In this document: piece after piece, positions 3,460 through 38,607 of the stretch | Layout of the letters: each line of letters begins with the position of its first letter | Position numbering within the stretch: the first letter of the stretch is position 1 | Source of the DNA: a virus | IMG/VR virus record: IMGVR_UViG_3300042874_000443 | Coordinates: 32,001-96,000 of that record | Length of the DNA stretch: 64,000 nucleotides | Direction: 5' to 3' (one strand) | Translations under genes and position numbers: made by a program | The notes under the pieces: model-generated | What the model saw: the letters and a program-made list of their open reading frames with translations, nothing else | Database searches by the model: none | What the model was told of the DNA's origin: nothing

Positions 3460-3771
3460 CTACGACCTCAGCGCGCCCATAGAGGGCGGCGGCTGTGCCG
3501 ACGGATCGCCGGCAAGTTCTGGCGGCATGCCGACAGTCGAGCCCATACCGGGCGGCGTTGGTGGCGACGTCGAAGGCATCTGCAGTGGAACGGTTCCGTC
3601 GAGCGCTGGAAGCGTTTCGCCTGGCACGTGTGACATCGGCGGCGTGTCCGTCGGCGGGATGTCCTTGCCGTGTTCGACGTCAGCCATGAACTGGTCAACC
3701 TGTGTTGGTGGGCCGAGTGCGAACTTCACGAGCGCGGCCTTGAGTCCGTTCATGTACGCCTGTTTCAACAT
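3460..3771 (-). CDS. Leader-motif protein, Pro/Met-rich
   Basis: MLKQAYMNGLKAALVKFA leader; start overlaps upstream stop. Confidence 0.8.
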   Translation of the reverse strand: MLKQAYMNGLKAALVKFALGPPTQVDQFMADVEHGKDIPPTDTPPMSHVPGETLPALDGTVPLQMPSTSPPTPPGMGSTVGMPPELAGDPSAQPPPSMGALRS

Positions 3772-4289
3772 TAGAAGGTTCCTGACGTTGGTGCGTACAC
3801 GAGGTCGCGTCCTTCGCGGTCTCGTTTGTTCTGCTCGTGCATGCCGTACGCGAGAGCACCACCGGCGGCGAGCGCGCCGTAGCCAAGGCCCTTCCCGAGC
3901 ATCTTGCCGACGGGGCGCATGAAACGTCCTGGACCGCCGCCGCCACTACCACCGCCGCCGCTCATGCCGCCGCTGCCGCCACCGGCAGCCGCGGACCCGT
4001 GACCCTCGAACGCACGCGCAGGTGGAAGCTGCACAGGTTGCGTGTTGATGTTCGCGGCTTGCTGTTGCGCGACGCCTTTGTGCATGTCCGCCCAGGACGC
4101 GCCTTGCGGTGCAGCCGGTGCAGCGGGCGCAGCGGGGGCCTTCGGTATCGAATGAAGATCCGCATGTAGCCCCGCGATCGCAGGATGCATGGGCTTGCCC
4201 GCAGGCATGCCGATAGCCCCGCGCGCGATCTTCACGCCGAAACGTGTGAGGGCGTTGTCACGACCGCGTTGGAACGCCGCGATCAACAT
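3771..4289 (-). CDS. Leader-motif glycine-rich membrane protein
   Basis: MLIAAFQRGRDNALTRFGVKIA leader; C-terminal GLGYGALAAGGALAYG hydrophobic helix. Confidence 0.8.
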   Translation of the reverse strand: MLIAAFQRGRDNALTRFGVKIARGAIGMPAGKPMHPAIAGLHADLHSIPKAPAAPAAPAAPQGASWADMHKGVAQQQAANINTQPVQLPPARAFEGHGSAAAGGGSGGMSGGGGSGGGGPGRFMRPVGKMLGKGLGYGALAAGGALAYGMHEQNKRDREGRDLVYAPTSGTF

Positions 4290-4292
4290 CGG

Positions 4293-4658
4293 TCATCCGA
4301 CCGCGAGGAAGACGACGGACGCAGGCCCCGTCGTCGTGATGAGCGCCGAGATCGGAAACGGCGTGCTCGGATTGCACCACTGGAAGTGTCCGCCCGGTGC
4401 GAGCGGCCACGCGTCGAGGCCGCCGTTGAACTTGATCGTCGCCGAACCCGAGAGACACACGACGGTGACGCCCTTGGCACCTGCAGCTGCGAGCGTGTCC
4501 AGATGGACGATGTCGTCCACGACCGCCACCGTGTACGCGCGCTGGAAGTCTGCGCGGTTGACGTACGGGATGGTCGCCGCGAGGCTGATGGGGGAAGGGG
4601 AGCCGCCGTCGACGAAGGCAGCGGACACCGCACCCGCGACCGAGTAGTTCTGCGCCAT
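4293..4658 (-). CDS. Small beta-rich virion protein
   Basis: 121 aa; TATAAT 6 nt before ATG. Confidence 0.7.
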   Translation of the reverse strand: MAQNYSVAGAVSAAFVDGGSPSPISLAATIPYVNRADFQRAYTVAVVDDIVHLDTLAAAGAKGVTVVCLSGSATIKFNGGLDAWPLAPGGHFQWCNPSTPFPISALITTTGPASVVFLAVG

Positions 4659-4664
4659 GCACTA

Positions 4665-4686: not shown

Positions 4687-5679
4687 TTACATCTCGAAGG
4701 CGATGGACGCGATCGGCCTGTTTTGGTCGCCGTACGAGCCGTCCTTCGTGCCCACACCGTACGGGCGGTAGGCGGCATTCGCGAGCTGGCCGATGTTGTC
4801 TGGGGTGATCTCGACCCACTGCATCGGGCGTGCGGAGTAGCCGCTTGAACCACGCGTTCCGTCCGCTGCGATCCGGTACATCTTGTGGTCGCGGAAGCAG
4901 AACAGCACGGTGTGGTGGTCCTTGTTCCAGCCGGTCGAGAGCTTGGTCGACTGGCTGCACAGCACGAACGTCGGCAGCGTGTCGCGACGGTCGTACAGCT
5001 CGCGCGCGTCCACGATACCCGCGAGGCCGAGACGCTTCGCACCTGAACCGTCCGGCGGAACACGAAAGCACACGTCGCCGAAGCCGCGGTACGGGCCCGC
5101 ACCAGGGTTCTGGTGAACGTCAGGCGACGCTTCGAGCAGCGTCATGAGCGAAGGAATGTTCCCCGCGTGCGTGAAGTCTTCGTTGCGACGCATGAGCCAC
5201 GACATGAAGAAGTTCGTCCACGATGTGCAGTGGAACGCGGGATACGTCTTGTTGAGGACGTTCGGCCACTCTCTCACAGTGCCGCCCATCTTCCCTGCGC
5301 CGTAGGTGATGACGAACTTGCCATCGACCCACAGTCCGCGTCCCGGACCGTAGCGAACCGGCTTGCCTGTGATCGCTGTGACGAGCGCCTGGAACGCGAG
5401 CCATGTTTGATCGTTGCACGGCACGATGTTCGAGGGTGTGCCAGCAACATCGCTGGCAGCCTTGCGCAGCACGATTGCCGCGTCCAGCGCCCCCAACGTG
5501 TGCGGTCCTGCGATGCCGTCGTCGTCGATGTCAGGACGATCGACCTGGAATGCAAGCACGGCGGCCGTGGTTCGCTTGCCGTAGTCACCGTCGATGTCGC
5601 CGGGGTCGTAGCCCGCAGCCTTCAGCTTGAGTTGGAGCAGCTCGACGGGCGGACCCTTGTCACCTGGCCGGAGGATCAT
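4687..5679 (-). CDS. Endolysin: N-terminal peptidoglycan-binding domain plus putative Cys/His (NlpC/P60/CHAP-like) catalytic domain
   Basis: LRPGDKGPPVELLQLKL...GDIDGDYGKRTTAAVLAFQ...DDDGIAGPHT (PG_binding_1); FHCTSW and DHHTVL; ATGA overlap at 5676-5679. Confidence 0.75.
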   Translation of the reverse strand: MILRPGDKGPPVELLQLKLKAAGYDPGDIDGDYGKRTTAAVLAFQVDRPDIDDDGIAGPHTLGALDAAIVLRKAASDVAGTPSNIVPCNDQTWLAFQALVTAITGKPVRYGPGRGLWVDGKFVITYGAGKMGGTVREWPNVLNKTYPAFHCTSWTNFFMSWLMRRNEDFTHAGNIPSLMTLLEASPDVHQNPGAGPYRGFGDVCFRVPPDGSGAKRLGLAGIVDARELYDRRDTLPTFVLCSQSTKLSTGWNKDHHTVLFCFRDHKMYRIAADGTRGSSGYSARPMQWVEITPDNIGQLANAAYRPYGVGTKDGSYGDQNRPIASIAFEM

Positions 5680-12608: not shown

Positions 12609-13538
12609 TCAGGCTTTCATATAGCGCAGGCCTTTGGTGGCTCCAATTGTGCCACCAACGGACGCGAGAAGATCGGGGAGTGACATGCCGACGCCCGGCA
12701 CGGTGATGTGACGGCCGAGAAGCTTTTCGAGGCCCATGCCTCCGAGCGCACCGAGGCCGCCGCCGAGAAGGCCGCCGCCGGCCATACCGCCGAACGTGCG
12801 CGCGGCAGCGCCGGGACCGTGCTTGACGCCCTGTTCTACGACGCTGTAGCCGGGGATCTCTCCCTTCAGGATGTCGCTCACAGGCTCACGTTCGACGTGC
12901 TCGCTCTGTTTCAGCGTCGGCTGCAGCATCTGTGCGCCTTGCAGTGCCCAGGGTGGGATGTCTTGGGACGTTGCGTCAAGCGCGTACGGCGCTCCTGGTG
13001 GCACAGAGGGCGCCGCCGTTTCTTCCGCTTTTTCGCCGAGAAGCTTGCCGGCCGTGCCCATCGTGAGAGTGCCGAGGAGGGCGCCTAGCTCGGGGTTGTT
13101 GAGGTAGCGGCGCCCCAGGTTGAATCCGGCGTAGCCGCCGATCGCGGGACCCGCTACCGCGGGAAAAACGGACGAGAGGCTGCCGCCCTTGAAGATGCTC
13201 GTCAAACGCGACAGGCGGTCCATCACACCCGGCGAAGAAGGTGCCGGTGCGGAGGGCGCGGCTTGGCGCGCAGCCATTGCGCGTTCGATGTCGCTCATAC
13301 GTTGCGTCAGCTCGCCGCCTTGCTGTTCGATGAGATTGGCGCGTTGTCCGAGACGCCCGTGGAGGGCACCTGCACCAGCGCCCATTGCGACGTCGCGTAG
13401 TGGGTGATCGTCACCGCTGACGAGACTCGTGAGTCCACCGAGCGCTCCACCCGCAAGCGCTCCGCCCAGTGGAGAGTTCGTCAGCAACTTGCTGACGTCC
13501 ACAGGCAGCGCAGCGATCTTGAAGCGTTCGACGGTCAT
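12609..13538 (-). CDS. Glycine-zipper membrane polyprotein
   Basis: MTVERFKIA start; three GxxxG hairpin modules. Confidence 0.75.
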   Translation of the reverse strand: MTVERFKIAALPVDVSKLLTNSPLGGALAGGALGGLTSLVSGDDHPLRDVAMGAGAGALHGRLGQRANLIEQQGGELTQRMSDIERAMAARQAAPSAPAPSSPGVMDRLSRLTSIFKGGSLSSVFPAVAGPAIGGYAGFNLGRRYLNNPELGALLGTLTMGTAGKLLGEKAEETAAPSVPPGAPYALDATSQDIPPWALQGAQMLQPTLKQSEHVEREPVSDILKGEIPGYSVVEQGVKHGPGAAARTFGGMAGGGLLGGGLGALGGMGLEKLLGRHITVPGVGMSLPDLLASVGGTIGATKGLRYMKA

Positions 13539-14548
13539 CAGTTCATCATCTGCTGCTGCTGCGGCTGTTGCTGTTGCGGCATCATCTTCTGACCCAGCGC
13601 ACCGCCGGCCATCGAGCCGACCATGTCAGTGGCGGCGCCGCCGATGCCGCCGGTCATCTTCGGAAGCGCCTTGCCCGCCACCCCTTGCAGCATCTTGCCG
13701 CCAGCGCCGCGTGCGAGCGCGCCCGCGCCTGCGCGAAGGGCGGTTCCACCGAGTAGTGCGCCTACGAGTGGAAGGATCGCCTCTTTGATCTGGAACGCAG
13801 CCGCAGCCGCCTTGATGCCGAGGTTGTAGTTCTCCTCGAGTCCTGCTGCCTTTGCAGCGAACGGCGACGTCGCGTGCATGCGATCGAGCGCCGCTTGTGG
13901 AAGCGGCGGCGGACCCTTCGGCCCCTTTGCGGCCGCCGGGATCGGTGGCGGCTTTGTCGGACGACCGCCGCCCATCACTGATGCAGCAGCAGCCGCGGGT
14001 GACATGGGGCCGCCGGCACCGCCGAAGATGGCGGCCTTCTCGCTGAGGCCGAATGCTGCGAGCGCTGCGTGCTTGCCGCGCAAACGATCGATCGTGCTGC
14101 GGTCGTCTTTGCCGCCGAGATGACCACCGATCGCAGCGCCGCCCACGCCACCGATCTGTTTGCCGAGATTCGCGCCCGCCTCTGGATTCATGTGAAGGGC
14201 CTGCGCGAGTAGGCTGCCGAGACCTCCCCCTGCGAAGCCGCCAACCGAGTGCCCGATGCCGGCGTCGATGGCTGCGTCGAGACCGCGCCCGGGATCGGCG
14301 CCAAGACCTGCACCGATCGCAGCGCCCGCCTGTCCGCTCAGCGGACCGAGCGCACCTGCTTGACCCATGCCGGACCCCAGACCGCCGATGAGCGCACCCA
14401 TCCCGCCCTGGTTCGCGAGCTTCTCCTCGTGCCCTCGGGGCTCACGTTCCACGATGATGTTGACGCCAGGACCGCCGTGCTCGCGCGTGTTCCTCTCGGC
14501 GCCCTTGACGAGATCCGCGATGAACTTGTCGAAGAAGCTATCGGACAC
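13538..14548 (-). CDS. Glycine-zipper polyprotein with internal leader motifs
   Basis: EEKLA, RGKHAALAAFGLSEKAA and NYNLGIKAAAAAFQIKEA separate Gly-rich modules; poly-Q tail. Confidence 0.75.
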   Translation of the reverse strand: MSDSFFDKFIADLVKGAERNTREHGGPGVNIIVEREPRGHEEKLANQGGMGALIGGLGSGMGQAGALGPLSGQAGAAIGAGLGADPGRGLDAAIDAGIGHSVGGFAGGGLGSLLAQALHMNPEAGANLGKQIGGVGGAAIGGHLGGKDDRSTIDRLRGKHAALAAFGLSEKAAIFGGAGGPMSPAAAAASVMGGGRPTKPPPIPAAAKGPKGPPPLPQAALDRMHATSPFAAKAAGLEENYNLGIKAAAAAFQIKEAILPLVGALLGGTALRAGAGALARGAGGKMLQGVAGKALPKMTGGIGGAATDMVGSMAGGALGQKMMPQQQQPQQQQMMN

Positions 14549-17698: not shown

Positions 17699-18541
17699 TC
17701 AGTACAGTTGCGGCGTTGTAGCAGGGTCCACGAGAAGCTTGTATTCGACAGAGTTACGGCCTAGCAACGAAGTAGATAGTTTCTGATGTACGGTGACGCT
17801 CTTCAGCTCCGTGTGATGAACACGTTGAACCTGATAGCGGTCATTACGTACCAGGTCGACCACGATGTCCTTGTACTCGACAAGTGGGTAGTCCAGGATG
17901 TTGAAGTCCGCGAGTCGAACATCACTGTCGCCATGCGCCATGATGTTCGTTTCAACGGTTGCGGCTTCACGCCTTCCACGGATGAGTGTCGGCGTCCAAT
18001 ACCCGCCCACGAACGATGTGCCGAAGCAGACCAGACAATGCTCGAGAGTCGACTCCTTGTTCACAGGGTCGTAGCACTCGGGACAACGGTCGCCCCAACG
18101 GCGGCGCTTGAGCAAGATGAGCGGGATGCCGTTGAGGTTCTTGTAGCCGACCGCCTGGTCGTGAAGGATCTTGCGTTTGAACAGACGCGTCCGTCTGTCG
18201 AGGCCGGGCTCCACAGGTTCCGGATGACTGTGGAACTCGTTTGCGGAACCCGACGGGGGTGTGACCGTGACCTGGTAGTAGATCACGCGCGCGAGTGAGA
18301 ACAGGTTGACGCCTTCACGTCCCGCGTTGCGGGGGTCCGCGGGAGGCAAGTTGAATTGATCGTCGACGAAGTTGTATGCGTCACGTAGTCCTGTTGCGAT
18401 CGATTCCCAAGGACCGTCTGGACCTTGCGCACGTGCGATGTCGACGAAGAACGACCCGCTCTCCTCTGATTCAACGTCCCACTGCACGAACACGGCGGTC
18501 GGGAACAACGCGGTGGTCCGCGTGATGTGGACGTCAGCCAA
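17699..18541 (-). CDS. Putative head-closure/neck protein with Cys cluster
   Basis: RCPECYD...CLVCFGTSFVGGY; TTG start. Confidence 0.55.
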   Translation of the reverse strand: MADVHITRTTALFPTAVFVQWDVESEESGSFFVDIARAQGPDGPWESIATGLRDAYNFVDDQFNLPPADPRNAGREGVNLFSLARVIYYQVTVTPPSGSANEFHSHPEPVEPGLDRRTRLFKRKILHDQAVGYKNLNGIPLILLKRRRWGDRCPECYDPVNKESTLEHCLVCFGTSFVGGYWTPTLIRGRREAATVETNIMAHGDSDVRLADFNILDYPLVEYKDIVVDLVRNDRYQVQRVHHTELKSVTVHQKLSTSLLGRNSVEYKLLVDPATTPQLY

Positions 18542-19325
18542 GAGCCGCCGGCCCCGGCTCAGGATCGCCGAAACCGCCCCCGATGTTGGTTGTGTCGACG
18601 GGGTTATCGAACTCGCGGAACATGCGATCGATGCGTTGCTCGCCTTCAGCGCCCCAGCCGACAGGGGGCGACAGGCGCGTGCGGCGTTCTTCGTACGGGT
18701 TCACTGTCGGACCGCGCTGCTCGTGCATCGAGTGGCCTTCGGAACCGGGGAGCATGAAGTCGGCGAGCTTGCGCGCGACCTTGTGTAGTCCGCCCGTCAT
18801 CCGCCCCGGCTCATCAGCGCTGTTGCGAATGCCTTGGTGGCGGAACAGATCCGCGAACGCGGACCCCGCTTGTTCGTCTGCAGGGCGTCCATCACGCGTG
18901 CGTGCGAGCGCGGAGTCCGCCGTCGTTGCCGAGTGGTAGTGCGGGCTCGTCGACGGGTTGTTCTGTTGCGACGGATCGCCGCCCAGCATGCCCATGTTGA
19001 AGTCCGCGGCCTTCACGGGAATCGTGCGCGGCTTGTCGCACGGACCGTAGTGCTTCGTCTTGCGACACGTCGTGCACATGTCTTCGGCCGACAGCTTTCG
19101 GATGGGTTCCGAACGCGACTGTCCCTGCTCGTGCGCACTGAAGATCTGCGCGACCTGCTGTGGATCGGTCGGCGCCGACAGGTTCTGCTGCGCGGTTTGC
19201 GACAGCGTGGGCGATGTCGGCTGCGTGATGGTCGCGACGTTCGGATTCGTGGGCGCGGGAAACCCCAGCTTGTAGCGCGCGAGCGCCGCGAGCTGTCCGT
19301 CTGCGTATGACAACTCGAGGGTCAT
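18534..19325 (-). CDS. Leader-motif protein, disordered, with CxxC-H-C knuckle
   Basis: MTLELSYADGQLAALARYKLG; CTTCRKTKHYGPC; VKAA, HKVA, RKLA. Confidence 0.75.
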   Translation of the reverse strand: MTLELSYADGQLAALARYKLGFPAPTNPNVATITQPTSPTLSQTAQQNLSAPTDPQQVAQIFSAHEQGQSRSEPIRKLSAEDMCTTCRKTKHYGPCDKPRTIPVKAADFNMGMLGGDPSQQNNPSTSPHYHSATTADSALARTRDGRPADEQAGSAFADLFRHQGIRNSADEPGRMTGGLHKVARKLADFMLPGSEGHSMHEQRGPTVNPYEERRTRLSPPVGWGAEGEQRIDRMFREFDNPVDTTNIGGGFGDPEPGPAALG

Positions 19326-19726
19326 GGCGCGACAACATCCCCTGGGAGCGGCATGCTGCTCGTCGCGTAGTCGTCGTCGTTTCGTTGAAACGCTCGGTCG
19401 ATCACGCTGCGTTGCCGACGTCCTGTGTCTTCAGGTTCCCCAGCTTGCGCGCCTGCTCCGTCGGTGGAGGTCGAAGCACCCATCCCAACGTTGGACGCCT
19501 TCTTGAGCTTGGGAACGAAGTCGTAGTCGCTCTCGACCTTGTTCGCACCGAGCGGCGACGGCACACTGGGCGGCGGGATTGGAGGCAAGTCGCTCGCCTT
19601 CGGCAACTGAATCCCAACGGACTTGAAGCCCGGCTGCTTGAAGCCGCCCTCCGCTGTTTTCACCACGCCGAAGGCCGCGAGCGCTGCGCGCCCGCCCTCG
19701 ACAGCTCTCTGGCGCAACAGCGACAT
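19322..19726 (-). CDS. Leader-motif protein
   Basis: MSLLRQRAVEGGRAALAAFGVVKTA. Confidence 0.75.
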   Translation of the reverse strand: MSLLRQRAVEGGRAALAAFGVVKTAEGGFKQPGFKSVGIQLPKASDLPPIPPPSVPSPLGANKVESDYDFVPKLKKASNVGMGASTSTDGAGAQAGEPEDTGRRQRSVIDRAFQRNDDDYATSSMPLPGDVVAP

Positions 19727-19736
19727 GGGGTGGTTG

Positions 19737-19913
19737 TTACTTCTGCGGCGTGCGGAACAGGCTGTTGAGCGGGTTCGCGGCGACCTTCGGTGCTTCGATG
19801 AGGCCGAGCGCTTCGGCTTCCTTGCGGACTTCTTCGGCGGTCTTGTAGCCAGCGCGCGCGAGGGCCTGCTGGACGCCGTACTCGTGCGCGGTCTTCAGGT
19901 GGGTGTTCGACAT
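19737..19913 (-). CDS. 58-aa leader-motif peptide (missed by ORF track)
   Basis: MSNTHLKTAHEYGVQQALARAGYKTAEEVRKEAEALGLIEAPKVAANPLNSLFRTPQK*; TATAAT 6 nt upstream. Confidence 0.8.
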   Translation of the reverse strand: MSNTHLKTAHEYGVQQALARAGYKTAEEVRKEAEALGLIEAPKVAANPLNSLFRTPQK

Positions 19914-19934: not shown

Positions 19935-20222
19935 TCACCCAATGACTTCTTGTCCGAACGTTCCATCTGCACGACCGGGCGCGATCTGGTCGTACGTCGT
20001 GAAGTGGTCCCACAACCAGTCCGGCATGTTGGCGCGCGCTGCGCCCGCTGATGCCGCCGAGGCGCCATCCCCCGGTGTTTCACGACGGGCGTATGGAATA
20101 CGGTCGGTTCCGTGGCTGACCTCGTCGCCCTTGGGTGCAACGCCGGCGTCCGCGCCCATCGCGTTGGCGAACTTCGCGAAGGCCGCACGCGTACCGCGCG
20201 CGTATGCGGCGCGTAACGTCAT
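19935..20222 (-). CDS. Leader-motif protein
   Basis: MTLRAAYARGTRAAFAKFA. Confidence 0.75.
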   Translation of the reverse strand: MTLRAAYARGTRAAFAKFANAMGADAGVAPKGDEVSHGTDRIPYARRETPGDGASAASAGAARANMPDWLWDHFTTYDQIAPGRADGTFGQEVIG

Positions 20223-21734: not shown

Positions 21735-22670
21735 TCAGACGAACGGCAGGTCGATGCGCTGCGTCGCCAGCGTGTTGCCGATACCGATGCCCGGAGCTGC
21801 GTAGCTCCAGAACTCGATGATGTCGGCTTCCTGCTTGATGTACAGGGTTGCGTCCTGCAGCAGGAAGAACACGCCGAGGTAGTTCTGCGGCGCGAACACG
21901 TAGACCGAGCGGCGCGTGCCGCCGGCGACGTCGTCGACGATCTCGCGCTTGATGGTCGAGACCACCGGGATGCCCCACAGCTTCTCCTCGGCCTCGATGC
22001 CGAGGTCGTAGTGGCGCGACGCGACGTCGTTGCCGACGCTGGTCGCCGGCAGGTCGAGCGCCTCGTAGTACGTCGACTTGCTCATCAGCAGCTTGCCGAT
22101 GGGCTGGCGACGGTTGACGAGGCCCTGGAAGCCGAGCTTGAACGCGCTCGAGTTGAACGCACCCGCCGCCGTGATCTGCGCCGGCGCCAACGCGAGGATC
22201 GCGTTGATGGTGTCGGTGAACTTCGTGTCCTCCTGGTCGGCCATGTCCTTGACCGAGTTGTCGGACAGGATCTTGCGGATGTCGTTCTGGTACGTCATCA
22301 GCTCGAACTTGTTCTTGGTGAAGCGCTGCGACTCCGTCTTGCCGAAGTAGACGGAGAAGCGGCGACCACGGAACCACGTACGCTGCGCGGTGCCGTTGAA
22401 CGGCACGAACGTGGCGACGGAGTCGGGCTCCTTCTCGACGATCTTCTTGGGCTGGTCGGTGTTCTCGTCGCGATCGATCTCGTCGTCCGCCAGCATGACT
22501 GGCTCGATGATCTCGCGCGCGAAGGACTCCTGACGGAGCTTCTGGCGGATGAAGGCGGTGCCTTCGGCTTCGGCTTCTTTCGTCCGTCCATCCTCGACCT
22601 TGCGGACGAAGTTGGAGTTGATGAACTGAGCCGAGACCTGCTGGGTCTGTGTCTTGTACGCTGCCGACAT
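21735..22670 (-). CDS. Major capsid protein (HK97-fold)
   Basis: 311 aa; AAGGAG RBS; strong codon bias; FIRQKLRQESFAREII, KLWGIPVV; downstream of protease/scaffold genes; 3' hairpin. Confidence 0.8.
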   Translation of the reverse strand: MSAAYKTQTQQVSAQFINSNFVRKVEDGRTKEAEAEGTAFIRQKLRQESFAREIIEPVMLADDEIDRDENTDQPKKIVEKEPDSVATFVPFNGTAQRTWFRGRRFSVYFGKTESQRFTKNKFELMTYQNDIRKILSDNSVKDMADQEDTKFTDTINAILALAPAQITAAGAFNSSAFKLGFQGLVNRRQPIGKLLMSKSTYYEALDLPATSVGNDVASRHYDLGIEAEEKLWGIPVVSTIKREIVDDVAGGTRRSVYVFAPQNYLGVFFLLQDATLYIKQEADIIEFWSYAAPGIGIGNTLATQRIDLPFV

Positions 22671-24178: not shown

Positions 24179-24763
24179 TCAGCGCGCGCTCTCGATGATC
24201 GCGAGCGTGTCCTTGAAGCCGCTGACGAAGGACTCGCTCGCGGCCTTGTGGATCTGCTCGACGGTGTCGTTCCAGCCCTTGGCGTATGCCGCCTCGGCGA
24301 GCTTCTCGAGCTGCTGCGTGGTGGCAGAGAAGCCCAGCTCCGCGGCCTCCTTGACCAGTTCGGGGTTCTCGGCAGCGAACTTCTCGAAGTCCGATGTCCC
24401 CCCTGCAACTGCGGCGGTCTTGGTGGGCTGCGTGGCGGCGACCTTTGCGGCTGCCTCCTGGTACTGCGCACCGCGCGCCATGAAGCCGTCCATCACAGCG
24501 GCGCCGTAGAGCTGCGCCTCCTTGACGAGTGCTTCGTGCTCGGCCTTGCTCAGGTCGGCGGCGATCTTGGTGAGGTCCTCGACCGGCGAGGCTTGGCTCG
24601 CGGTCTTGGCTTGTGGCGCCGTGGCTTCCTTGAGCGCCTGCTTGAGGCGTTCGCCGGCGTCGCTCGATGGAGACGACGATCCCGACGGCGTGGCTGCGGG
24701 CGCCGCAGCGCTCGCGGTCTTTTCGCCGCCTTTGATCATCCCGAGTGCGTCTGAGAGCTTCAT
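24179..24763 (-). CDS. Scaffold/core protein rich in K-x-A
   Basis: EKTA, LKQA, LKEA, AKTA, TKIA, VKEA, AKVA, TKTA, EKFA, EKLA; leader-like AAYAKGWNDTVEQIHKAA. Confidence 0.75.
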   Translation of the reverse strand: MKLSDALGMIKGGEKTASAAAPAATPSGSSSPSSDAGERLKQALKEATAPQAKTASQASPVEDLTKIAADLSKAEHEALVKEAQLYGAAVMDGFMARGAQYQEAAAKVAATQPTKTAAVAGGTSDFEKFAAENPELVKEAAELGFSATTQQLEKLAEAAYAKGWNDTVEQIHKAASESFVSGFKDTLAIIESAR

Positions 24764-24821: not shown

Positions 24822-26564
24822 TCAAGTCAACACGATGGCTCCGAGCGCTTCGGCGACCCCATCCAGGCTCGCTGCTGACGCCACCTTGATACTCGAAAAG
24901 TCACACGAGTGCGTCGTCGGTAACGCGCATTCGATGAGATGCACGATCGACGCTTGGGACGCCGATTTGGCCACCATCTCCGTGATGTCGGGGATGTCGT
25001 AGCCCTCGTCCGTACGCATCGTTCCACCCGGGCGCTTGCCGAGTGTGGCCATACCGAGCGCTCCTGCACCGATTGCAAGAGGTGTCTTGAATCGACGCAT
25101 CCAAGGGAATGCGGTGAGCGCTTTGTATCCGCCCAATAGTAGACCAGTACCACCGAGCACCTTGCCGATATGCGCACGTGTCACGGCGTCTTGCGCATCG
25201 ATCGCTGCACCGCGTGTCGTTTCGTATGGCCCCATGTGTAGCACGTCTGTCGTGGGCGCTGCATCAGGACGGAGCCCAGCACCTTCGGGAACGAGACGGC
25301 GGTAGAGCATCTCGCCGACGTACGCACGCTTCTCGTTGACGCGCCCGAAGTAGCCGTGCAGCTCTTTGGCGATCTTCGAAGACTCGAGCGCGCCCCCGTC
25401 GATCACTTCGTCGAGAAGCTCTGGACGTTCCGCGAAAAGTCCTAGCGACCAACGTGCGGCGGCCGCCACCTTCGCGACCATCACAGTGGTTGGCGCGAGC
25501 GCGACACCCGCGAGCTTGCTCATCGCGAGCGGAACAAACTCCGCGTCTTTGAGCACGACGCCGTACGCGGCTGCCGCACTGAGCACCTCACCCAGAGGCC
25601 ATGCGCGCAATGCGTTGACGTCGATGCTCGCGGCCTTCGCGAGGCTTGGGCCGGCGTGGTCACGGAACTTCACGATGAACGACTTCTCGTCCGGTGTGAG
25701 CGTGCTCGACGCCAGAGGCTCCGCACGGATCACCTTGTCGATGTCCGAGAGCTTCTGCGTGGCTCCGCTCTTGAGCGTGAGGCGCTCGGTGACTTCACCG
25801 AGATCGGCCGACAGGCGAACCGTTGCAACATCCGCGACCTTCTTGAGTGTGTAGCCGGTGCGGTCCGCGGGACGGAACACACGGCTGATGTCGAAGAAGT
25901 CGGGCGACGGGTTGTGGACGTAGTCCTTGAACCCGTGCTCGTCGACAACGTTCATCGCGAACTTCACGTGGTCGCAGTAGTCCGCACGGGTCGGCGCTTC
26001 GTTGCCACAGCGTGCGCACACGTCGCGCTTGATGCGGCAGCCCATGCTGACAGGTACGAACTCGCCATCGCTCGCACGCTTGACCCACTCGGGGTCCTTG
26101 TCGTTGTCGACCGAGACGAGAAGCTCCACGCGGTGCATGCGCGGGTTCCAGAACGCCTTCTTCACCACACCCGATGCTTTCGACGGGTCGCGGTTCGCGT
26201 GGTGCTTGAACGCGTGGGCGGGGTTCTTCTCGAACGAGGCGTAGTGCTCGGTCAGCTCTTCGCCGGGCGGTACGAACCACCGGCGATTGATCGACGCGAT
26301 CTTGCCTCGTGCGGGAACCGGGAATTCAGGGAAGCCGTCGCCGTTGCGGTTCGGGCCGTACGTCTCTTCGGCGCCGAGTGCGTTGAGCAGCATCGCCGTC
26401 TTGCCGGGCTCGGGCGCGACGTGCTTGATGTAGTCGAGAGCCTCGGAGGCGTACTTCGAGACGCGGCTCGTGTCGACGCTGCGGCCGCTGTTCCACGGCA
26501 GGATGATCTGGACCGTGGGTTCTCCGGTCGCGAAGTAGTCGTCCAGCTCGATGATCTTCTTCAC
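24822..26564 (-). CDS. Prohead/capsid maturation serine protease with zinc finger and C-terminal membrane-like extension
   Basis: NRNGDGF, FKHHAN (His), VPVSMGC (Ser) followed by CARCGN...YCDH; position upstream of MCP. Confidence 0.8.
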   Translation of the reverse strand: MKKIIELDDYFATGEPTVQIILPWNSGRSVDTSRVSKYASEALDYIKHVAPEPGKTAMLLNALGAEETYGPNRNGDGFPEFPVPARGKIASINRRWFVPPGEELTEHYASFEKNPAHAFKHHANRDPSKASGVVKKAFWNPRMHRVELLVSVDNDKDPEWVKRASDGEFVPVSMGCRIKRDVCARCGNEAPTRADYCDHVKFAMNVVDEHGFKDYVHNPSPDFFDISRVFRPADRTGYTLKKVADVATVRLSADLGEVTERLTLKSGATQKLSDIDKVIRAEPLASSTLTPDEKSFIVKFRDHAGPSLAKAASIDVNALRAWPLGEVLSAAAAYGVVLKDAEFVPLAMSKLAGVALAPTTVMVAKVAAAARWSLGLFAERPELLDEVIDGGALESSKIAKELHGYFGRVNEKRAYVGEMLYRRLVPEGAGLRPDAAPTTDVLHMGPYETTRGAAIDAQDAVTRAHIGKVLGGTGLLLGGYKALTAFPWMRRFKTPLAIGAGALGMATLGKRPGGTMRTDEGYDIPDITEMVAKSASQASIVHLIECALPTTHSCDFSSIKVASAASLDGVAEALGAIVLT

Positions 26565-33731: not shown

Positions 33732-33902
33732 TCACGAAGAACTTGGGAACGATACGACTTTCGGAAGGTTTGCGTCGGGAAGGCCGCCCAGCTGCTTGGT
33801 CTTCTGTGCCTTGAGCGAGCCGAGCGTCGGGGTGATGATCTCGCCGAGCTTCGCTACGACGGCTCGAAGGCCCGCTTCGCGGATGTGACGCGGAAGGCTC
33901 AC
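33732..33902 (-). CDS. 56-aa peptide with leader-like N-terminus (missed by ORF track)
   Basis: MSLPRHIREAGLRAVVAKLGEIITPTLGSLKAQKTKQLGGLPDANLPKVVSFPSSS*; GTGA overlap. Confidence 0.6.
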   Translation of the reverse strand: MSLPRHIREAGLRAVVAKLGEIITPTLGSLKAQKTKQLGGLPDANLPKVVSFPSSS

Positions 33903-35233
33903 GCGCGCTGCGCGGCGTCGATGCGACGGAACATGTCGCGGAGCGACGCCTCCTTCTTGTCGTCGTCCTTCTTCTCGTTCTTGTCGCCGCCGCCGTCCTT
34001 CTTGGCGTCGATCTTGTCTTGGATGAACGACGGGAGTCCGCCCTTGCTCTCGCCCTTGTCGTCGTCCTTCTTCTCGTCCTTCTTGTCGTCCTCCTTCTTC
34101 ATGAACGGCGGAAGGTCATCGGCCTGTTTGGTGCCCTGGTTGCCCGAGCGCCCGTCGTACGCACCGGGGCGCGAGTGCGTCGCCTCCGGGTTGTGCTCGT
34201 TGTAGTTGCTGCGCGAGCCGGGCGGCAGGTTCGCCGGCGCTGCTGCCGTGCGATCCGCTGCTTCCTTCTGCAGGCCGCGGAGGTAGTACGCCTTCTCCTC
34301 GGTGGTCAGGCCCATGCACGCGCGCACGGCCGCGATCTTGGCGTTCTCGTCGAGAGAGCCCGGCAGATACTCGTGCACCTCGGCCGCGACCTTCTTGAAG
34401 AGAGCGATGTACGGGTCTTCGGAAGCGGCCTTGCCCGAGTGCTCGGTGAGCGAGTTCGAACCGCCCGGCGTCTCGGCCGGCTTGTTCGGCTGCGGGGTCT
34501 CGCGACCGATCACGGCCGGACCCGTCACCTGCTTCATCATCTCGCCCAGGGCGCCCTGGTGCGGAAGAACGGCGTAGCCGGGCGGACGCTGCGAAGCGTC
34601 CATCTTCGCTTCGGCCGACGACATCTCCTTGTTGCCCTTGTCGCCGCCGAGGATGGTCGAACCCTCGGCCGACTTGCGGAAGAGGTCCGAGAGCGACGCG
34701 GTACGCGAGTGCTCCTGCACCGAGTTGTCCTTGGAGTCGGTCTCCTTCGGTTTGTTCGGCTGCTCTTCTTCCTTGCCGACCGCGCCCGGACGCGTGTCGA
34801 CATCGGTCTTGCCGAGGCTGTTCTCGGCGTAGCCCGGCGGACGCTGCGACGCGTCCATCTTGGTCTCACCCTGTGGCGATTCGCCTTCGGTGTTCCCCTT
34901 GTCGCCACCCTCGATGGTCGAGCCCTCGGCAGCCTTCGTCATGAGCTGCGTCGCGTTGTAGTCCGCGACCTTCATGACGTCGTCCCACGTCGCGAGCTTG
35001 TTCCACCCGGCAGCCTTGAAGCCCGGCTGCTTCTTGATCCAGTCCGAAGCGCTGACGAGGTCCGTCGCGATCTTGTGGGTCGTCTCGCGACCGACGCCCT
35101 TCAGCGGGTCGATGTCGACGCGCTCGGCGATGTAGTCCGCGACCTTCGCCGCAGTGGTCTCGTCAGGGAATGCGGCAATGCCGCCGTTGATTAACGCGGT
35201 CTGGATGCCTCGGACGTACGCGTGCTTGAACAT
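33899..35233 (-). CDS. Head/core protein with two ~87-aa internal repeats
   Basis: GAGGAG RBS, ATG 35233 (MFKHAYVRGIQTAL leader); repeat AEGSTI.GGDKGN...KMDASQRPPGYA...QPNKP.ET...NS..EHS. Confidence 0.8.
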   Translation of the reverse strand: MFKHAYVRGIQTALINGGIAAFPDETTAAKVADYIAERVDIDPLKGVGRETTHKIATDLVSASDWIKKQPGFKAAGWNKLATWDDVMKVADYNATQLMTKAAEGSTIEGGDKGNTEGESPQGETKMDASQRPPGYAENSLGKTDVDTRPGAVGKEEEQPNKPKETDSKDNSVQEHSRTASLSDLFRKSAEGSTILGGDKGNKEMSSAEAKMDASQRPPGYAVLPHQGALGEMMKQVTGPAVIGRETPQPNKPAETPGGSNSLTEHSGKAASEDPYIALFKKVAAEVHEYLPGSLDENAKIAAVRACMGLTTEEKAYYLRGLQKEAADRTAAAPANLPPGSRSNYNEHNPEATHSRPGAYDGRSGNQGTKQADDLPPFMKKEDDKKDEKKDDDKGESKGGLPSFIQDKIDAKKDGGGDKNEKKDDDKKEASLRDMFRRIDAAQRA

Positions 35234-35260
35234 GCAAGTCTCCTCGGGGGGAACGGTGGA

Positions 35261-35268
35261 ATGATAGG
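35261..35268 (-). promoter_or_regulatory. -10 element CC-TATCAT
   Basis: CGTCCTATCAT; 27-nt leader containing GAGGAG. Confidence 0.65.
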
Positions 35269-35297
35269 ACGGGACGCTCAAATATCCAACGGTTGCA

Positions 35298-35510
35298 CTA
35301 ACCGAGTGCTTGGGCCTTCGAAGCGCCCGTCGCCATTGGTGGTGCGGATGAGGCTGGTGGAGCCATGGTCGATGCGGGCTGTGGTTGTGTTCCCACGGAA
35401 GCCTGCCCACCGAGCATGGGGTTGTAGCCGGCAGCGCCCTGCTGCATGTTGCCGAGCTTGAAGCGTGCGAACGCAGCAGCGCGTCCTCGGTTGTAGGCGT
35501 CGTTGATCAT
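35298..35510 (-). CDS. Leader-motif peptide
   Basis: MINDAYNRGRAAAFARFKLG. Confidence 0.8.
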   Translation of the reverse strand: MINDAYNRGRAAAFARFKLGNMQQGAAGYNPMLGGQASVGTQPQPASTMAPPASSAPPMATGASKAQALG

Positions 35511-35965
35511 TGGAAGGGGTCCTGTGGTGGTTGTGGCGGTGGGGCGCTACCGAGTAGATGTCCGGCACCATGCCCGAGGCGGCCGCCGAGCGCAGCACCG
35601 AGAGGCATACCAAGCATGCCGCCCGCCATGCCGCCGTATGCACCGCCCGCGAGACGCCCAAGTGTTCCGAGCGCATGTGACGCGCGCCCTTCGTTCGGGT
35701 CTGGATTGGTTACCGCACGCATCGCCATCGGTACCATGGCGAGCGTTCCTGCACGACCAATCCAGTTACCGAACGTACCGTACTGTGATGGCCAGAACAC
35801 GTTCTTCCAATGCAACGCACCGCCTGGTGAGAATGCCTTGGGTCCTTGTACGAACGCACGACCTGCATCACCGATGAGCGACCGTTTGGCGAAGTCGACT
35901 ATCCCAGCCACCTTGAAGTGTGACAGGGCTGCGACTACGCCTTGTTCATGTGCCTTTGACAACAT
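35507..35965 (-). CDS. Leader-motif glycine-zipper protein
   Basis: MLSKAHEQGVVAALSHFKVA; GGAYGGMAGGMLGMPLGAALGG. Confidence 0.8.
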   Translation of the reverse strand: MLSKAHEQGVVAALSHFKVAGIVDFAKRSLIGDAGRAFVQGPKAFSPGGALHWKNVFWPSQYGTFGNWIGRAGTLAMVPMAMRAVTNPDPNEGRASHALGTLGRLAGGAYGGMAGGMLGMPLGAALGGRLGHGAGHLLGSAPPPQPPQDPFQ

Positions 35966-37746
35966 CAGTACTGACCCTCTTCGCCAAGGCCAAATTCAGT
36001 GCCGGCAACATACGCTGGAACAGGTGACGCTCCATGCAGATTGGACACATCCCCTCGATGGATACCCGCCAGCAATGACTCTTTGAGATAGCGATGTGCG
36101 AGACGCGCCATCCAGTCAGGGTTGAGAAGAGGTGTGCGCGACGCTGGGCGCATCAACGGCGTGGCGCGTGGGCCATGCTCTGCAATCAACACGGACGTCA
36201 CACCGTTCCGGGTCAGTTGGTCCGCCATCGGTTGCGTCACAAGCGTGCCTGCCGTGTGGTGCAGTACATTGTCCGCTAACGTCTCGCCGACCGCGTCCGC
36301 CGTGGGGAGGCGCTTCTTGGAAGATGCGAGCGCAGCATGGAAGCGGTTGTAGTCGACGACGTCGCCCTTCAAGAACGCGTCGTGCGGCCCAGGGTCCACG
36401 ATCTGTACGTGGTTCAAGACCGACTTCGCAAGGGTCTCGAGGTGGCGCTTGTCGACCTCGGAGCCCGAGCGTTTGTAGACGTCAGACAACGCGTCGACGA
36501 GATAGCGACGTCCTTCACCGAGGCCCTTGTGCTGCACGACTTCATCGGGCTTGGGAACGCCATCGGAGAGCAGGTCGCCCGCGTACATCGACTGTCCGAC
36601 GTTCACGATGACCTTGTGTGTGGGTGCCACGTAGTGACTGCCGTCGTTGACGAAGACGTAGTGCCCACCTTGAGGCGCCTTGTCGATCTTGGTGATCGTA
36701 CCGTCTCGGTTCGCAAGGGTTGCCTTGTGTGCGAAGGCCGTCGGAATTTCGAGCAGAGACCGCACACCTTTGATGCCTTCGAGGCGTTTTTCATCGTCGA
36801 CACTGGCCACGCGTCCGCCGTGCTTGGCGTTCAGCGAGAACTGCGTCAAAGGCTCGGACAGCGCTTGCGCTGCACGCACTCCGACGTTCGTTCCGATCGA
36901 GTGCATCGCGCCCGAGGGGGACAAGCCCTGGCAGTGCTGACAAACACCGTGCGCGGCTTCGCACGTCATCGGTGACCGTACGACGACTTCTTTGCCCGTC
37001 TTAGCCAGGGTCGACGCGTACTGCGGCGTGATGAGTTTGTTCGTCTTTGCTTCGTAGCGGTCGATGATGTGCGCGTCCGTCGGAAGCATCGCCAGTCCGT
37101 TGTGCGTGCCGCAGTCGATCTTCGTGACGAGCTGATCCCCCATGTTGTTGACGAGGATCTTGGCGAGGTCGCCTGGTTCGACGACGGAGATGTTCGACAG
37201 CACGGCGTTGACGCGCGCTTCGCCCCCGGCGACCCATGCGTCAGCAGGCTTGAGGCCTTCGGAGAAACTGCGATCGATGAGCCACGGGACGATCTTGCCC
37301 TTGGAGTCGCGCGCGAAGACAGGCGCTCCGACTGTACGCATCAGCTGAGGTGCGTTGCCGCGTCCGCCCGACCGCACCATCTCGCCCATCGTGCCCGGGT
37401 GCTTTTTTGCGAGCGTGAGCATCGAGTCGAAAGCGCCGTTGAGCGCCTTGTCCTTGTCGACGGTGGTCGTCGCACGACGAAACGCTTCGACGTGCGGCTT
37501 CATGGCTGCATCGCGTGCCGCGGTGTGCGGTGCGATGTCGTCGAGCCCGACCGAGATGCCGTCGAGCGTTGCCGTCTCGTCGCCCAGGCGTTTGAGCTTG
37601 GTGACGATGTCGGGGTACTTGTGCGGGTCATCCTTGGCGATGCCGACAAGGGTCTCGTTCAACGATCCTTTGGTGAGCGCGCCACGCCCGCGCCACTTCG
37701 GTGGGAGGATCGAGTCGACGAGATGTTGGCCGAGCGTGGTGGCCAT
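35965..37746 (-). CDS. RNA polymerase beta' C-terminal subunit (RpoC2-like)
   Basis: MVRSGGRGN (cf. MADSGARG), SFSEGL (NFREGL), RSPMTC...GVCQHCQG, GVRAAQALSEPLTQFSLNAKH (trigger loop), VDKRHLE. Confidence 0.92.
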   Translation of the reverse strand: MATTLGQHLVDSILPPKWRGRGALTKGSLNETLVGIAKDDPHKYPDIVTKLKRLGDETATLDGISVGLDDIAPHTAARDAAMKPHVEAFRRATTTVDKDKALNGAFDSMLTLAKKHPGTMGEMVRSGGRGNAPQLMRTVGAPVFARDSKGKIVPWLIDRSFSEGLKPADAWVAGGEARVNAVLSNISVVEPGDLAKILVNNMGDQLVTKIDCGTHNGLAMLPTDAHIIDRYEAKTNKLITPQYASTLAKTGKEVVVRSPMTCEAAHGVCQHCQGLSPSGAMHSIGTNVGVRAAQALSEPLTQFSLNAKHGGRVASVDDEKRLEGIKGVRSLLEIPTAFAHKATLANRDGTITKIDKAPQGGHYVFVNDGSHYVAPTHKVIVNVGQSMYAGDLLSDGVPKPDEVVQHKGLGEGRRYLVDALSDVYKRSGSEVDKRHLETLAKSVLNHVQIVDPGPHDAFLKGDVVDYNRFHAALASSKKRLPTADAVGETLADNVLHHTAGTLVTQPMADQLTRNGVTSVLIAEHGPRATPLMRPASRTPLLNPDWMARLAHRYLKESLLAGIHRGDVSNLHGASPVPAYVAGTEFGLGEEGQY

Positions 37747-37747
37747 A

Positions 37748-38131
37748 TCACATCATGGGGTAGCCGCCGCCCGCGTTCATCATGGCGTGCTGGCGTGCCT
37801 GCTCTTCGCGCTTGGCCTGGTTGTGTCGGTGCAACATGTAGAGGCCGCCGCCGGCGAGTAGCGACGGTGCGAGCGTCTTGAGATTGCCGAGGGCGCCCGC
37901 ACGCGCGGCCGCACCAGCAGCAGCGTCTGGCGCTCCGCCGAGGCCTTGGTGCAGGTTGCCGAGTAGGCTCTTGCCCGCCTCGAGCTGACCCGACCCGAAC
38001 GCCTTGGCCCGATCCATGAGGCCAGCACCGGCCGCTGGCGCTGCTCCCATACCTGGAAGTGGGAGCTGGTTGGCGATCTTGAAACGCGCGAGCGCGTCGA
38101 AGTGTCCTTGGGCAACGTAGCGGTCGAGCAT
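37748..38131 (-). CDS. Leader-motif membrane peptide between RNAP genes
   Basis: ATG 38131: MLDRYVAQGHFDALARFKIA; C-terminal LLAGGGLYML. Confidence 0.8.
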   Translation of the reverse strand: MLDRYVAQGHFDALARFKIANQLPLPGMGAAPAAGAGLMDRAKAFGSGQLEAGKSLLGNLHQGLGGAPDAAAGAAARAGALGNLKTLAPSLLAGGGLYMLHRHNQAKREEQARQHAMMNAGGGYPMM

Positions 38132-38607
38132 CAGACGCCTCCGAAACTGGTGTTCTGTCCCATATCGCTGAGCCGGTTGGCGGCATCGCCGCCGGCAAGG
38201 TTCGACGGCGCACCCCACGACGTGTTGCGGTCGAGAGGGTCACGCGCTGCGAGCTGATCGGCGGGCGCCATCGGAGCGTCGATCTCCTTGAGCAGATCGG
38301 CGAGGCTGTCCGCTGTTTCTTCGTTCGCGCGTTTGGCGTTTCGATCTGCTTCAGCCTTATGGGCTGCGTCGAAGCCGTGGAATGTGCGGCTCGGAATCTT
38401 CAGGCGCAGTTCCTCGGCGGCTTGCTTGAAACCGAATCGCTCGAGAGCATCGACGATGCCGAGTAGGTGCGACTTCTTCACGTGCTGCGGCAACTTCTTA
38501 CCCTTGGGAGTGGCGTCCTCCCACTCCTTGACGGTCTTGGAGCTGATCTCGCCGCGGTCTGCCATGGCGTAGAACTTCCCCCGTTGCGCTTGGGACTTGA
38601 AGGGCAC
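38131..38607 (-). CDS. MPFKS-x-AQR small basic domain fused to leader motif
   Basis: MPFKSQAQR...KEWEDATPKGKKLP then SHLLGIVDALERFGFKQA. Confidence 0.75.
   Translation of the reverse strand: MPFKSQAQRGKFYAMADRGEISSKTVKEWEDATPKGKKLPQHVKKSHLLGIVDALERFGFKQAAEELRLKIPSRTFHGFDAAHKAEADRNAKRANEETADSLADLLKEIDAPMAPADQLAARDPLDRNTSWGAPSNLAGGDAANRLSDMGQNTSFGGV

Follow-up and report, generated by a model that had tools for sequence, protein, structure and literature searches.

The window analysed here is a stretch of 64,000 nucleotides (positions 32,001 to 96,000 of IMG/VR record IMGVR_UViG_3300042874_000443) from an uncultured phage of ~180 kb. It contains 11 solid copies of one leader helix of about 16 residues, carried by small proteins of the virion gene block that are otherwise unrelated. 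Every copy lies on the minus strand, which is the strand of the virion genes, and translation of the leader genes is coupled inside the block, where many of their start codons overlap the stop codon of the preceding structural gene. The leader genes and the head-assembly genes around them are the following, with HMM scores in bits and profile-profile (hhalign) scores.

3460..3771, minus strand: leader protein of 103 aa, leader at nt 3765-3712 with a Pro-rich tail after it; 15.6 bits, hhalign 27.3; orthologue G002:126418 scores 19.7 bits
3771..4289, minus strand: leader protein of 172 aa, leader at nt 4280-4230, Gly/Ala-rich C-terminal part; 14.6 bits, hhalign 23.8; leader retained in orthologue G001:20718
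13538..14548, minus strand: Gly-rich protein of 336 aa with degenerate internal leader copies at nt 14080-14045 and 13828-13784
18534..19325, minus strand: leader protein of 263 aa with a Cys-rich knuckle, leader at nt 19310-19263; 14.8 bits, hhalign 27.9
19322..19726, minus strand: leader protein of 134 aa; its leader, at nt 19714-19661, ends in K-T-A-E and lacks an aromatic residue in column 4; 12.3 bits, hhalign 27.0
19737..19913, minus strand: the smallest of the leader proteins, with 58 aa; its leader, at nt 19895-19842, ends in K-T-A-E and is the best copy (25.0 bits), hhalign 29.9
19935..20222, minus strand: leader protein of 95 aa, leader at nt 20213-20166; 13.9 bits, hhalign 27.6, leave-one-out rank 12
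21735..22670, minus strand: major capsid protein, 41.6% identical to that of phage Arash (E 5e-64)
24179..24763, minus strand: scaffold-like helical protein of 194 aa with three conserved K-T-A-[S/A] islands
24822..26564, minus strand: prohead protease, N-domain at residues 16-232, with a fused helical C-terminal part
33899..35233, minus strand: core leader protein of 444 aa (ATG at 35233), leader at nt 35227-35174; 14.6 bits
35298..35510, minus strand: leader protein of 70 aa, leader at nt 35501-35451; 20.7 bits, hhalign 30.2
35507..35965, minus strand: leader protein of 152 aa with a Gly-rich C-terminal part, leader at nt 35956-35906; 18.4 bits, hhalign 30.1
35965..42975, minus strand: two-chain RNA polymerase (RNAP) with Pfam Rpb2/Rpb1 domains
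37748..38131, minus strand: leader protein of 127 aa (ATG at 38131), leader at nt 38122-38072; 15.9 bits, hhalign 26.6
38131..38607, minus strand: protein of 158 aa with an internal leader at nt 38475-38425 (residues 45-61); 13.8 bits, hhalign 28.9
43382..45184, minus strand: portal protein, 30% identical over 568 aa to Arash gp204 portal (E 1e-85)

The earlier note had listed 12 leader genes, and 11 of these stand (those starting at 3771, 4289, 19325, 19726, 19913, 20222, 35233, 35510, 35965 and 38131, and the internal copy in the gene starting at 38607). The twelfth, 33732..33902 on the minus strand, scores 9.9 bits and 9.8 by hhalign, within the noise range, and its orthologues lack the A-L core; it is thus not a member and the count is 11. 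The two internal copies proposed for 13538..14548 are present but degenerate here (8.3 and 7.2 bits; hhalign 17.6), and orthologues of the second reach 11.2-15.5 bits. This gene is inserted between the sheath and tube genes, which are direct neighbours in Arash and in Vibrio phage D69. A promoter-like decamer is found at 19927, directly upstream of gene 19737..19913.

The motif reads A-[YHF]-x-x-G-x-x-x-A-[LF]-x-x-[FYL]-[KG]-phi and spans 16-18 residues. The A-[YHF]..G..A-[LF] core of the originally proposed consensus is upheld, but its K-x-[AG] end is missing in ~45% of 103 non-redundant copies and is variable among orthologues. Ten of the 11 leaders start 3-8 residues past the start codon; the remaining one begins at residue 45-46 of the protein encoded by 38131..38607, behind a different N-terminal module of 45 residues. 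This module matches phrog_25121, annotated as a virion structural protein (E 0.003), as well as structural proteins of phages A4 and RaK2, and the G002 orthologue of the same protein carries the leader at its extreme N-terminus.

An Ala/Gly-rich proteome encoded at 61% GC might yield such a motif by chance or through composition, or the motif might be a nucleotide-level signal at gene starts. With leave-one-out HMMs built from the 11 seeds only, some members do drop to ranks of 13-26 among 2,835 ORFs. The controls, however, refute this explanation, to which we give practically no credence. When an iterated HMM with a cut-off of 12 bits was run against the entire 157-kb contig translated in six frames, 12 matches were observed where 30 shuffles averaged 0.07, and the reversed sequence reached at most 6.5 bits. 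Eleven of the 12 are the leader family; the other (13.4 bits, in a 42-codon ORF at window coordinate 108950) is the sole extra match in the rest of the contig and is probably due to chance. No copy was found in the non-structural part of the contig, in agreement with the claim that the replication genes have none. A strict regular expression gave seven matches, all in gene frames of the minus strand, and none in plus-strand frames. Profile-profile comparison of the leader with orthologue alignments of all 51 virion-block proteins scored the 11 families at 23.8-30.2; apart from these and 13538..14548, none exceeded 13.9. The DNA is indeed not repeated, as the mean nucleotide identity of the copies is 45% and their longest shared word is 11 nt; third codon positions are 39% identical, and the invariant Gly7 is encoded by three different codons.

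The motif is also kept in orthologues from about 100 related uncultured contigs, with 141 matches on the gene strand and one on the opposite strand, across genomes of 49-66% GC. For 18534..19325, an alignment of 13 non-identical orthologous sequences shows it kept in several. The core leader protein (33899..35233) is found in all six genomes compared (here and G001-G005) and has 239 database homologues, none of them named. Leader copy number varies between 2 and 12 among genomes, and about eight further unrelated cargo types are carried behind the same leader in G002-G005. These further cargoes tend to occupy the same three sites, namely the gap between the RNAP genes, the one between the neck genes (homologues of Arash gp233/gp234) and the stretch after the baseplate genes. 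The nearest cultured relative is Salmonella phage Arash; it and D69 were the only cultured relatives found, and neither has the motif or the inserted genes.

What follows the leader differs completely, as first noticed: the best E-value in cargo-to-cargo BLAST is 0.011. Ten leader proteins have no Pfam or PHROG match below E 0.001, and ten cargoes of the relatives have no significant Pfam match. Many cargoes have Gly/Ala-rich, mildly hydrophobic segments, and two leader genes adjoin the endolysin gene. Together with the copy number and the cargo turnover, which would be expected under conflict with the host, these features could point to a host- or membrane-directed module of delivered or late-expressed effectors. 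The binding partner of such a module would be a host target or the cell membrane, for instance when it helps to form a channel through which DNA and protein enter, or in lysis. The earlier mention of membrane hairpins is overstated, however: Kyte-Doolittle values above 1.2 over a 19-residue window occur in none of the leader proteins, nor does any transmembrane-grade segment, and signal-peptide features were not seen. The proposed amphipathic helix holds as a helix, but a weakly amphipathic one, with Eisenberg hydrophobic moments of 0.12-0.34 over all 11 leaders, none of which reaches the high moment expected of a membrane-targeting helix with its clear polar and apolar faces. Most copies, moreover, lie within head and neck operons, and we consider a host or membrane role improbable.

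The shape of the leader fits tight helix-helix packing, as the small residues Ala3, Gly7 and Ala11 line up in a ridge with Tyr/His4, Leu12 and Phe15 on its flanks. In the AF2 model of the core protein, leader residues 2-16 form a helix (pLDDT ~84), the first of a three-helix N-domain bundle predicted with pLDDT 79-90 over residues 1-70. Because it is modelled within this bundle, the leader of this protein may be a structural rather than a disposable element. More generally, the leader could be the conserved helix 1 of paralogues that have diverged, serving permanently for docking or oligomerisation. It would then keep these proteins attached to each other or to a shared partner, either in the mature particle or in the infected cell; the packaged RNAP, an ejection complex or the tail lumen are examples of such partners. 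A ridge in which small residues recur after every three others is typical of permanent packing, and among orthologues the conservation of the leader does not exceed that of the cargo's C-terminal part. The unconserved cleavage-like end, the internal copies and the five leader genes that flank the RNAP genes in every genome compared are likewise in line with a permanent helix. The families of 19726 and 20222 have a weak second motif in common after the leader, which hints at common descent. On the other hand, similarity among the cargoes is undetectable, proximity to the start codon is strictly kept in ten of the 11 copies and in most relatives, and leader genes are also present in the neck and tail regions, a long way from the RNAP genes. 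We regard a permanent helix as possible, though rather unlikely.

The head genes of the window are in keeping with loading into the head. The protease gene matches phrog_18299, head maturation protease (E 2.3e-7), and is a homologue of Arash gp222. Its AF2 model superposes on T4 gp21 (5jbl) with a VIA Z of 9.8 and an rmsd of 3.6 Å over 140 residues, and on herpesvirus proteases with Z of 5-6; His107/121/122 and Ser173 are invariant. The protein accordingly has the T4 gp21 fold. The assignment of 24179..24763 as a scaffold is reasonable. In an alignment of 15 relatives its K-T-A-[S/A] islands are conserved inside otherwise variable linkers. It has nine K-x-A-[E/S/A] sites in 194 aa, and profile-profile comparison of the leader with its helices gave no significant similarity. 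Across 23 head-internal proteins this K-x-A-[E/S/A] signature occurs 52 times against 11 expected (4.6-fold, z 12.8), and neither it in the major capsid, portal, RNAP or tail proteins nor the control motifs showed enrichment. Four leader proteins contain it: in those starting at 19726, 19913 and 38607 it forms the end of the leader, and the core protein has eight sites. Eight of the 11 leaders end in the looser K-x-[A/G].

One set of RNAP genes is present per genome, with beta and the N-terminal part of beta' fused (38614-42975) and the C-terminal part of beta' encoded separately (35965-37746); leader genes stand between and after the two. In purified Arash particles, the homologous subunits gp206 and gp216 were detected by mass spectrometry along with many other proteins (PMC10585845). 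This lineage may therefore package proteins; the list comprises 116 proteins, and the authors allow for carry-over of abundant ones (PMC10585845).

By analogy with the internal proteins of T4, we suggest that the leader is most likely a docking tag that brings its carriers into the assembling head. The T4-like setting speaks for such capsid targeting, with its gp21-like protease, scaffold-like protein, K-x-A signature and cargo turnover, but the cleavage-like end of the leader varies among orthologues. Other observations also count against targeting: the leader is no better conserved than the cargo C-terminus, Arash and D69 lack the motif, genes 3460-4289 and 13538-14548 sit among tail and lysis genes and not among head genes, and the core protein is modelled as a three-helix bundle. 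In the mechanism that we propose, a variable assortment of small accessory proteins, most of them disordered, would be docked through the leader helix onto a single partner, shared by all, in the core of the assembling prohead. The docked proteins would be enclosed in the capsid along with the phage RNAP, and both would be delivered at infection; some accessory proteins would be processed by the gp21-like protease at K-x-A-type sites. We infer from the genes and models both the presence of tagged proteins in the virion and the tag as its cause, and we place the joint proposal of docking, co-enclosure, delivery and partial processing slightly below an even chance.

The capsid-targeting sequences of T4 are N-terminal propeptides of 10-19 residues, which attach to the core and are cleaved off by gp21 (PMC9026906). 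Ten of the 11 copies here are likewise short N-terminal peptides, common to otherwise unrelated small proteins as in IPI, IPII, IPIII and Alt; both phages encode a gp21-fold prohead protease and a scaffold core, and in both the tag is kept while the cargo changes between relatives (PMC9026906). Unlike the T4 sequences, to which it has no similarity, the leader is longer and has an invariant G-x3-A-L core, its carriers are about twice as many per genome, and the candidate cleavage signature is K-x-A-[E/S/A], whereas the T4 site ends in Glu. In SPN3US, one of the phiKZ-like giant phages, the substrates of gp245 share only the cleavage motif A-x-E, and most propeptides have 111-254 residues (PMC10052503). 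As in our phage, many head-internal proteins adjoin a gp21-like protease there, a short recognition motif is scattered over scaffold-like and internal proteins, and a virion-packaged multisubunit RNAP is known (PMC10052503), as is likely here. The propeptides there have no common leader sequence, in contrast to the proteins described here.

Herpesvirus assemblin cleaves scaffold proteins at maturation sites of the form V/L-x-A followed by Ser. The protease fold is related, and the candidate K-T-A-[S/A] sites of the scaffold-like protein similarly place Ser or Ala after Ala; the Lys third before the candidate bond is not a herpesvirus feature. A still wider reading, which we judge unlikely, is that throughout a large, uncultured, globally distributed clade of ~160-200-kb phages one conserved helical tag loads interchangeable small proteins of at least 19 cargo types (counted in six genomes) into the prohead, where the protease then trims them. 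The clade would package its own RNAP, and its gp21-fold protease would have an Ala-type, herpesvirus-like K-x-A specificity. If true, the clade would possess a portable code for capsid loading, defined by sequence and independent of that of T4.

Encapsulation peptides of bacterial microcompartments and targeting peptides of encapsulins, whose shells have the HK97 fold of phage capsids, are terminal helices of ~18 residues or short peptides. A flexible, poorly conserved linker joins them to diverse cargo, and the shell recognises them with its inner face and leaves them uncleaved. These systems are cellular organelles with unrelated sequences, uncleaved peptides and no DNA packaging, but they share with the leader proteins the same design of tag, linker and cargo.

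The window runs from 32001 to 96000 in an IMG/VR virus contig of 157,408 bp with an estimated completeness of 84%, and carries, in window numbering, a single virion block of minus-strand genes from 1969 to 45184. The block was mapped with PHROGs and Pfam, along with tblastn against Salmonella phage Arash and Vibrio phage D69, the sole cultured relatives found.

Mapped genes of the virion block
43382-45184, minus strand: portal (Arash gp204)
38614-42975, minus strand: RNA polymerase (RNAP) chain, beta fused to the N-part of beta'
35965-37746, minus strand: C-part of RNAP beta'
30266-33331, minus strand: large structural protein (Arash gp218)
24822-26564, minus strand: prohead protease
23188-24763, minus strand: small helical scaffold-like proteins
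21735-22670, minus strand: major capsid protein (41.6% identity to the Arash counterpart)
20219-20698, 17699-18541 and 16988-17695, minus strand: neck genes (Arash gp233, gp234 and gp235, respectively)
14559-16916, minus strand: sheath
11836-12597, minus strand: tube
9534-10955, minus strand: gp5-like spike
4687-5820, minus strand: endolysin

Proteins of this block share a leader with the core A-[YHF]-x-x-G-x-x-x-A-[LF]-x-x-[FYL]-[KG]-phi, and the peptides quoted in the earlier note are found at the positions it gave. A strict regular expression has seven matches, all in minus-strand gene frames and six of them directly behind a start codon, with none in the plus-strand frames. A leader HMM built from twelve seeds and iterated on relatives gathers 103 non-redundant copies, in which Gly7 is invariant and Ala11 and Leu12 are found in 101 and 91 copies, respectively. 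The motif clearly exceeds shuffled sequence, as twelve HMM matches in six frames of the whole contig reach at least 12 bits against a mean of 0.07 in 30 shuffles; the top score in reversed sequences is 6.5 bits. Eleven of these twelve matches form the leader family, and the other, in a 42-codon ORF at 108950 (window numbering) that overlaps longer frames, is probably due to chance. When the leader is compared by hhalign with orthologue alignments of all 51 block proteins, eleven families score 23.8-30.2, the internal copy of 13538-14548 scores 17.6 and all remaining proteins score at most 13.9. Leave-one-out HMMs (11 seeds) recover about half of the members at top rank, and we therefore rely on the shuffles, the strand bias and the relatives.

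Eleven of the twelve N-terminal or internal members proposed previously are thus retained, and 33902 is dropped, its profile score of 9.8 being noise and its orthologues lacking the A-L core. Of two internal copies proposed in 13538-14548, the second is weak here (7.2 bits), but its orthologues reach 11-15 bits, which makes it real at the family level. The claim that conservation lies in the protein and not in repeated DNA is borne out: across the twelve seeds, the doubtful 33902 copy among them, the leaders share 45% DNA identity overall and 39% at third codon positions, the longest shared word is at most 11 nt, and the invariant Gly uses three different codons. Chance or a DNA-level signal can be regarded as excluded as the source of the motif. 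Beyond the leader the proteins are unrelated, as had been proposed (best pairwise E-value 0.011). Neither Pfam nor PHROGs gives anything significant for ten leader proteins, nor does Pfam for ten cargoes of relatives, and the ESM Atlas offers on cargo function only a lead at 0.75, under its noise level. No description of the leader motif was found in the literature.

The leader is widespread among related genomes. A capsid protein search of IMG/VR finds 128 related stretches, 80 of which were kept (99% down to 69% identity), and a search with the beta' C-part adds 22 further loci. On these loci, leader HMM matches of at least 9 bits number 141 on the gene strand versus one on the opposite strand, and in most of the relatives' matches the motif lies 3-9 residues past a Met. 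Approximate copy numbers are 11-12 in the contig and, in five nearly complete relatives (175-194 kb, 49-66% GC), 8 in G001, 10-11 in G002, 4-5 in G003, 2 in G004 and 4 in G005. Leader columns 14-17 differ by subclade, with F-K-phi in that of the window, F-G-phi in G003 and L-G-F/M in the G004/G005 subclade. Leader genes keep their positions: between the pair of RNAP genes, immediately behind the beta' C-part, downstream of baseplate genes, and between homologues of Arash gp233 and gp234. The 444-residue family of 33899-35233, directly after the beta' C-part, is present in six of six genomes; against 5.8 billion proteins its window member (35233) has 239 homologues, all in metagenomic or unnamed records and none with a functional name. 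Carriers in G001 and G002 are orthologous to those of the window, and G002-G005 hold about eight carriers with cargoes that detectably resemble no other. These new cargoes behind the leader indicate that the tag persists while the cargo changes. The idea that the leader is better kept than its cargo was rejected, since leaders match the window copy with an identity of 0.43-0.68 and the rest of the protein with 0.44-0.78.

The syntenic 40-kb regions of Arash and D69 contain no leader HMM match above 5 bits, and these phages also lack the leader-carrying genes, with gp233 and gp234 adjacent, and likewise sheath and tube. In the window, two Gly-rich genes (12609-14548) sit between the sheath and tube genes, the second opening with what appears to be only the last six leader residues (R-F-K-I-A-A). 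A 29-codon ORF between RNAP genes of G005 (L140, G005:C1:71172) contains little beyond the leader, and either was left behind when a cargo gene was lost or encodes a peptide made up of the leader alone.

By analogy with the capsid targeting sequences of T4, the best-supported, still tentative, reading is that the leader may be a docking tag through which its carriers are incorporated into the prohead. The T4 sequences are N-terminal propeptides of 10-19 residues that have affinity for the core, are removed by the prohead protease gp21 and are borne by fast-changing proteins (PMC9026906); the propeptides of phiKZ-like phages are a further model (PMC10052503), and the idea of a tag is thus not new in kind. 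The observation is robust and the leader family large, and the mechanism, as read from sequence, is putative. That the docking tag is also clipped off is a narrower and more doubtful claim. The docking-tag reading is weakened because the K-x-[A/G] end is missing in about 45% of copies and unconserved among orthologues, because leader conservation does not exceed that of cargo C-termini, because some carriers sit among tail and lysis genes, and because the model of 35233 places its leader within a folded domain. In this AlphaFold2 model (54 homologues) the leader forms a helix over residues 2-16 with a pLDDT of about 84, followed at similar confidence by helices 25-38 and 49-67, and the remainder is largely disordered; a fold search returns generic three-helix bundles only (Z of 5.9 or less).

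Mass spectrometry of purified Arash particles detected the homologous RNAP subunits, with most spectra for gp206, along with gp216, a sigma factor, gp217, gp218 and gp222; its authors note that carry-over of abundant proteins is possible (PMC10585845). Each genome of the clade has one RNAP set, encoded between portal and head genes, and a second set as in phiKZ was found in none. In the complete relative G001 (187,862 bp, terminal repeats), the Pfam RNAP beta match at G001:C1:55980-57986 is split in two within one 1,812-codon frame, which suggests that this polymerase carries an intein or other in-frame insertion.

The main rival, in our view rather unlikely, takes the leader for a helix of a diverged family that docks or oligomerises permanently, perhaps in connection with a packaged polymerase or ejection complex. 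We regard a host- or membrane-directed module as improbable, and as less probable than the permanent helix. The membrane hairpins reported earlier are not supported, as transmembrane-grade segments are absent from all leader proteins, and the helix called amphipathic is only weakly so (moment 0.12-0.34).

The product of 24822-26564 matches a head-maturation-protease PHROG, and its AlphaFold2 model (26 orthologues, mean pLDDT 67.5, N-domain 70-87) has T4 gp21 as its top fold match (Foldseek probability 0.92). A second aligner gives gp21 Z 9.8 (rmsd 3.6 Å, 140/164 residues), a lead of three Z units over the next unrelated row, and several herpesvirus proteases score Z 5-6. His107, His121, His122 and Ser173 are invariant. 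A PDB sequence search gives no match, so that the identification comes from fold comparison alone. Within the protease domain, residues 183-199, with invariant Cys 183, 186 and 197 and a nearly invariant His199, probably form a zinc-binding insertion.

Three K-T-A-[S/A] motifs are the sole islands conserved across distant relatives in the scaffold-like protein 24179-24763, whose linkers are otherwise variable. Across 23 head-internal proteins (19322-35965 and 37748-38607), K-x-A-[E/S/A] occurs 52 times versus 11 expected (4.6-fold, z 12.8), a count reached in 0 of 300 shuffles. This enrichment is not found in the major capsid protein, portal or RNAP, nor in neck, tail and lysis proteins, and control motifs (the reverse motif; R, E, Q and Gly variants) show 0.3-1.3 fold. 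These sites are found mainly in the scaffold-like protein, with 9, in the protease and the core leader protein 35233, with 8 each, in the gp218-like protein, with 5, and in the small helical proteins. The leaders of 19726, 19913 and 38607 end exactly in such a site. These patterns make K-x-A-[E/S/A] a candidate for the code that the gp21-fold protease recognises, Ala taking the place of Glu, and they fit recognition with Ala at or next to the cut, as in the herpesvirus assemblins. Mimicry of the scaffold was also considered, as inspection by eye suggests a leader-like pattern (A-Y-x-x-G, hydrophobic periodicity, K-x-A) in the scaffold-like protein's C-terminal helices, and was dropped as evidence because the leader HMM (-0.4 bits) and hhalign (11.7) scores are within noise.

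To our knowledge, T4 is the sole case known in detail of how a phage chooses the proteins enclosed with its DNA. If the docking-tag reading is true, the leader would be a second sequence-defined tag, would show tag-based loading to be a general strategy of large phages, and would give the packaging of foreign proteins into capsids a second handle. Its core motif is clear, each genome supplies a dozen natural carriers, and natural variants in metagenomes number in the hundreds. The motif would then flag, directly from sequence, candidate injected proteins of uncultured phages, possibly counter-defence or take-over factors, and the specificity of a new gp21/assemblin-type protease branch would follow from the K-x-A signature.

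We further note a promoter-like decamer, C-C-C-T-A-T-A-A-T-T, on the minus strand at 16957, 19927, 21223, 38620, 66218, 70533 and 77679, with one plus-strand copy 397 nt before the window; one variant reads C-A-A-T. Several genes, the sheath gene and two leader genes among them, start 7-25 nt downstream of a copy, and the decamer may be the late promoter that the phage polymerase uses with its sigma factor; mRNAs from some copies would be leaderless. Finally, residues 1-45 of 38131-38607 (38473-38607) form a second N-terminal module, distinct from the leader and absent from the G002 orthologue. Proteins annotated as virion structural in three giant phages, Escherichia phage A4 and Klebsiella phages Muenster and RaK2, have N-termini similar to this module, and there is a weak likeness to the start of capsid proteins from Clostridium phages; the module and its phage counterparts end alike in K-L-P-x-H-V-K-K.
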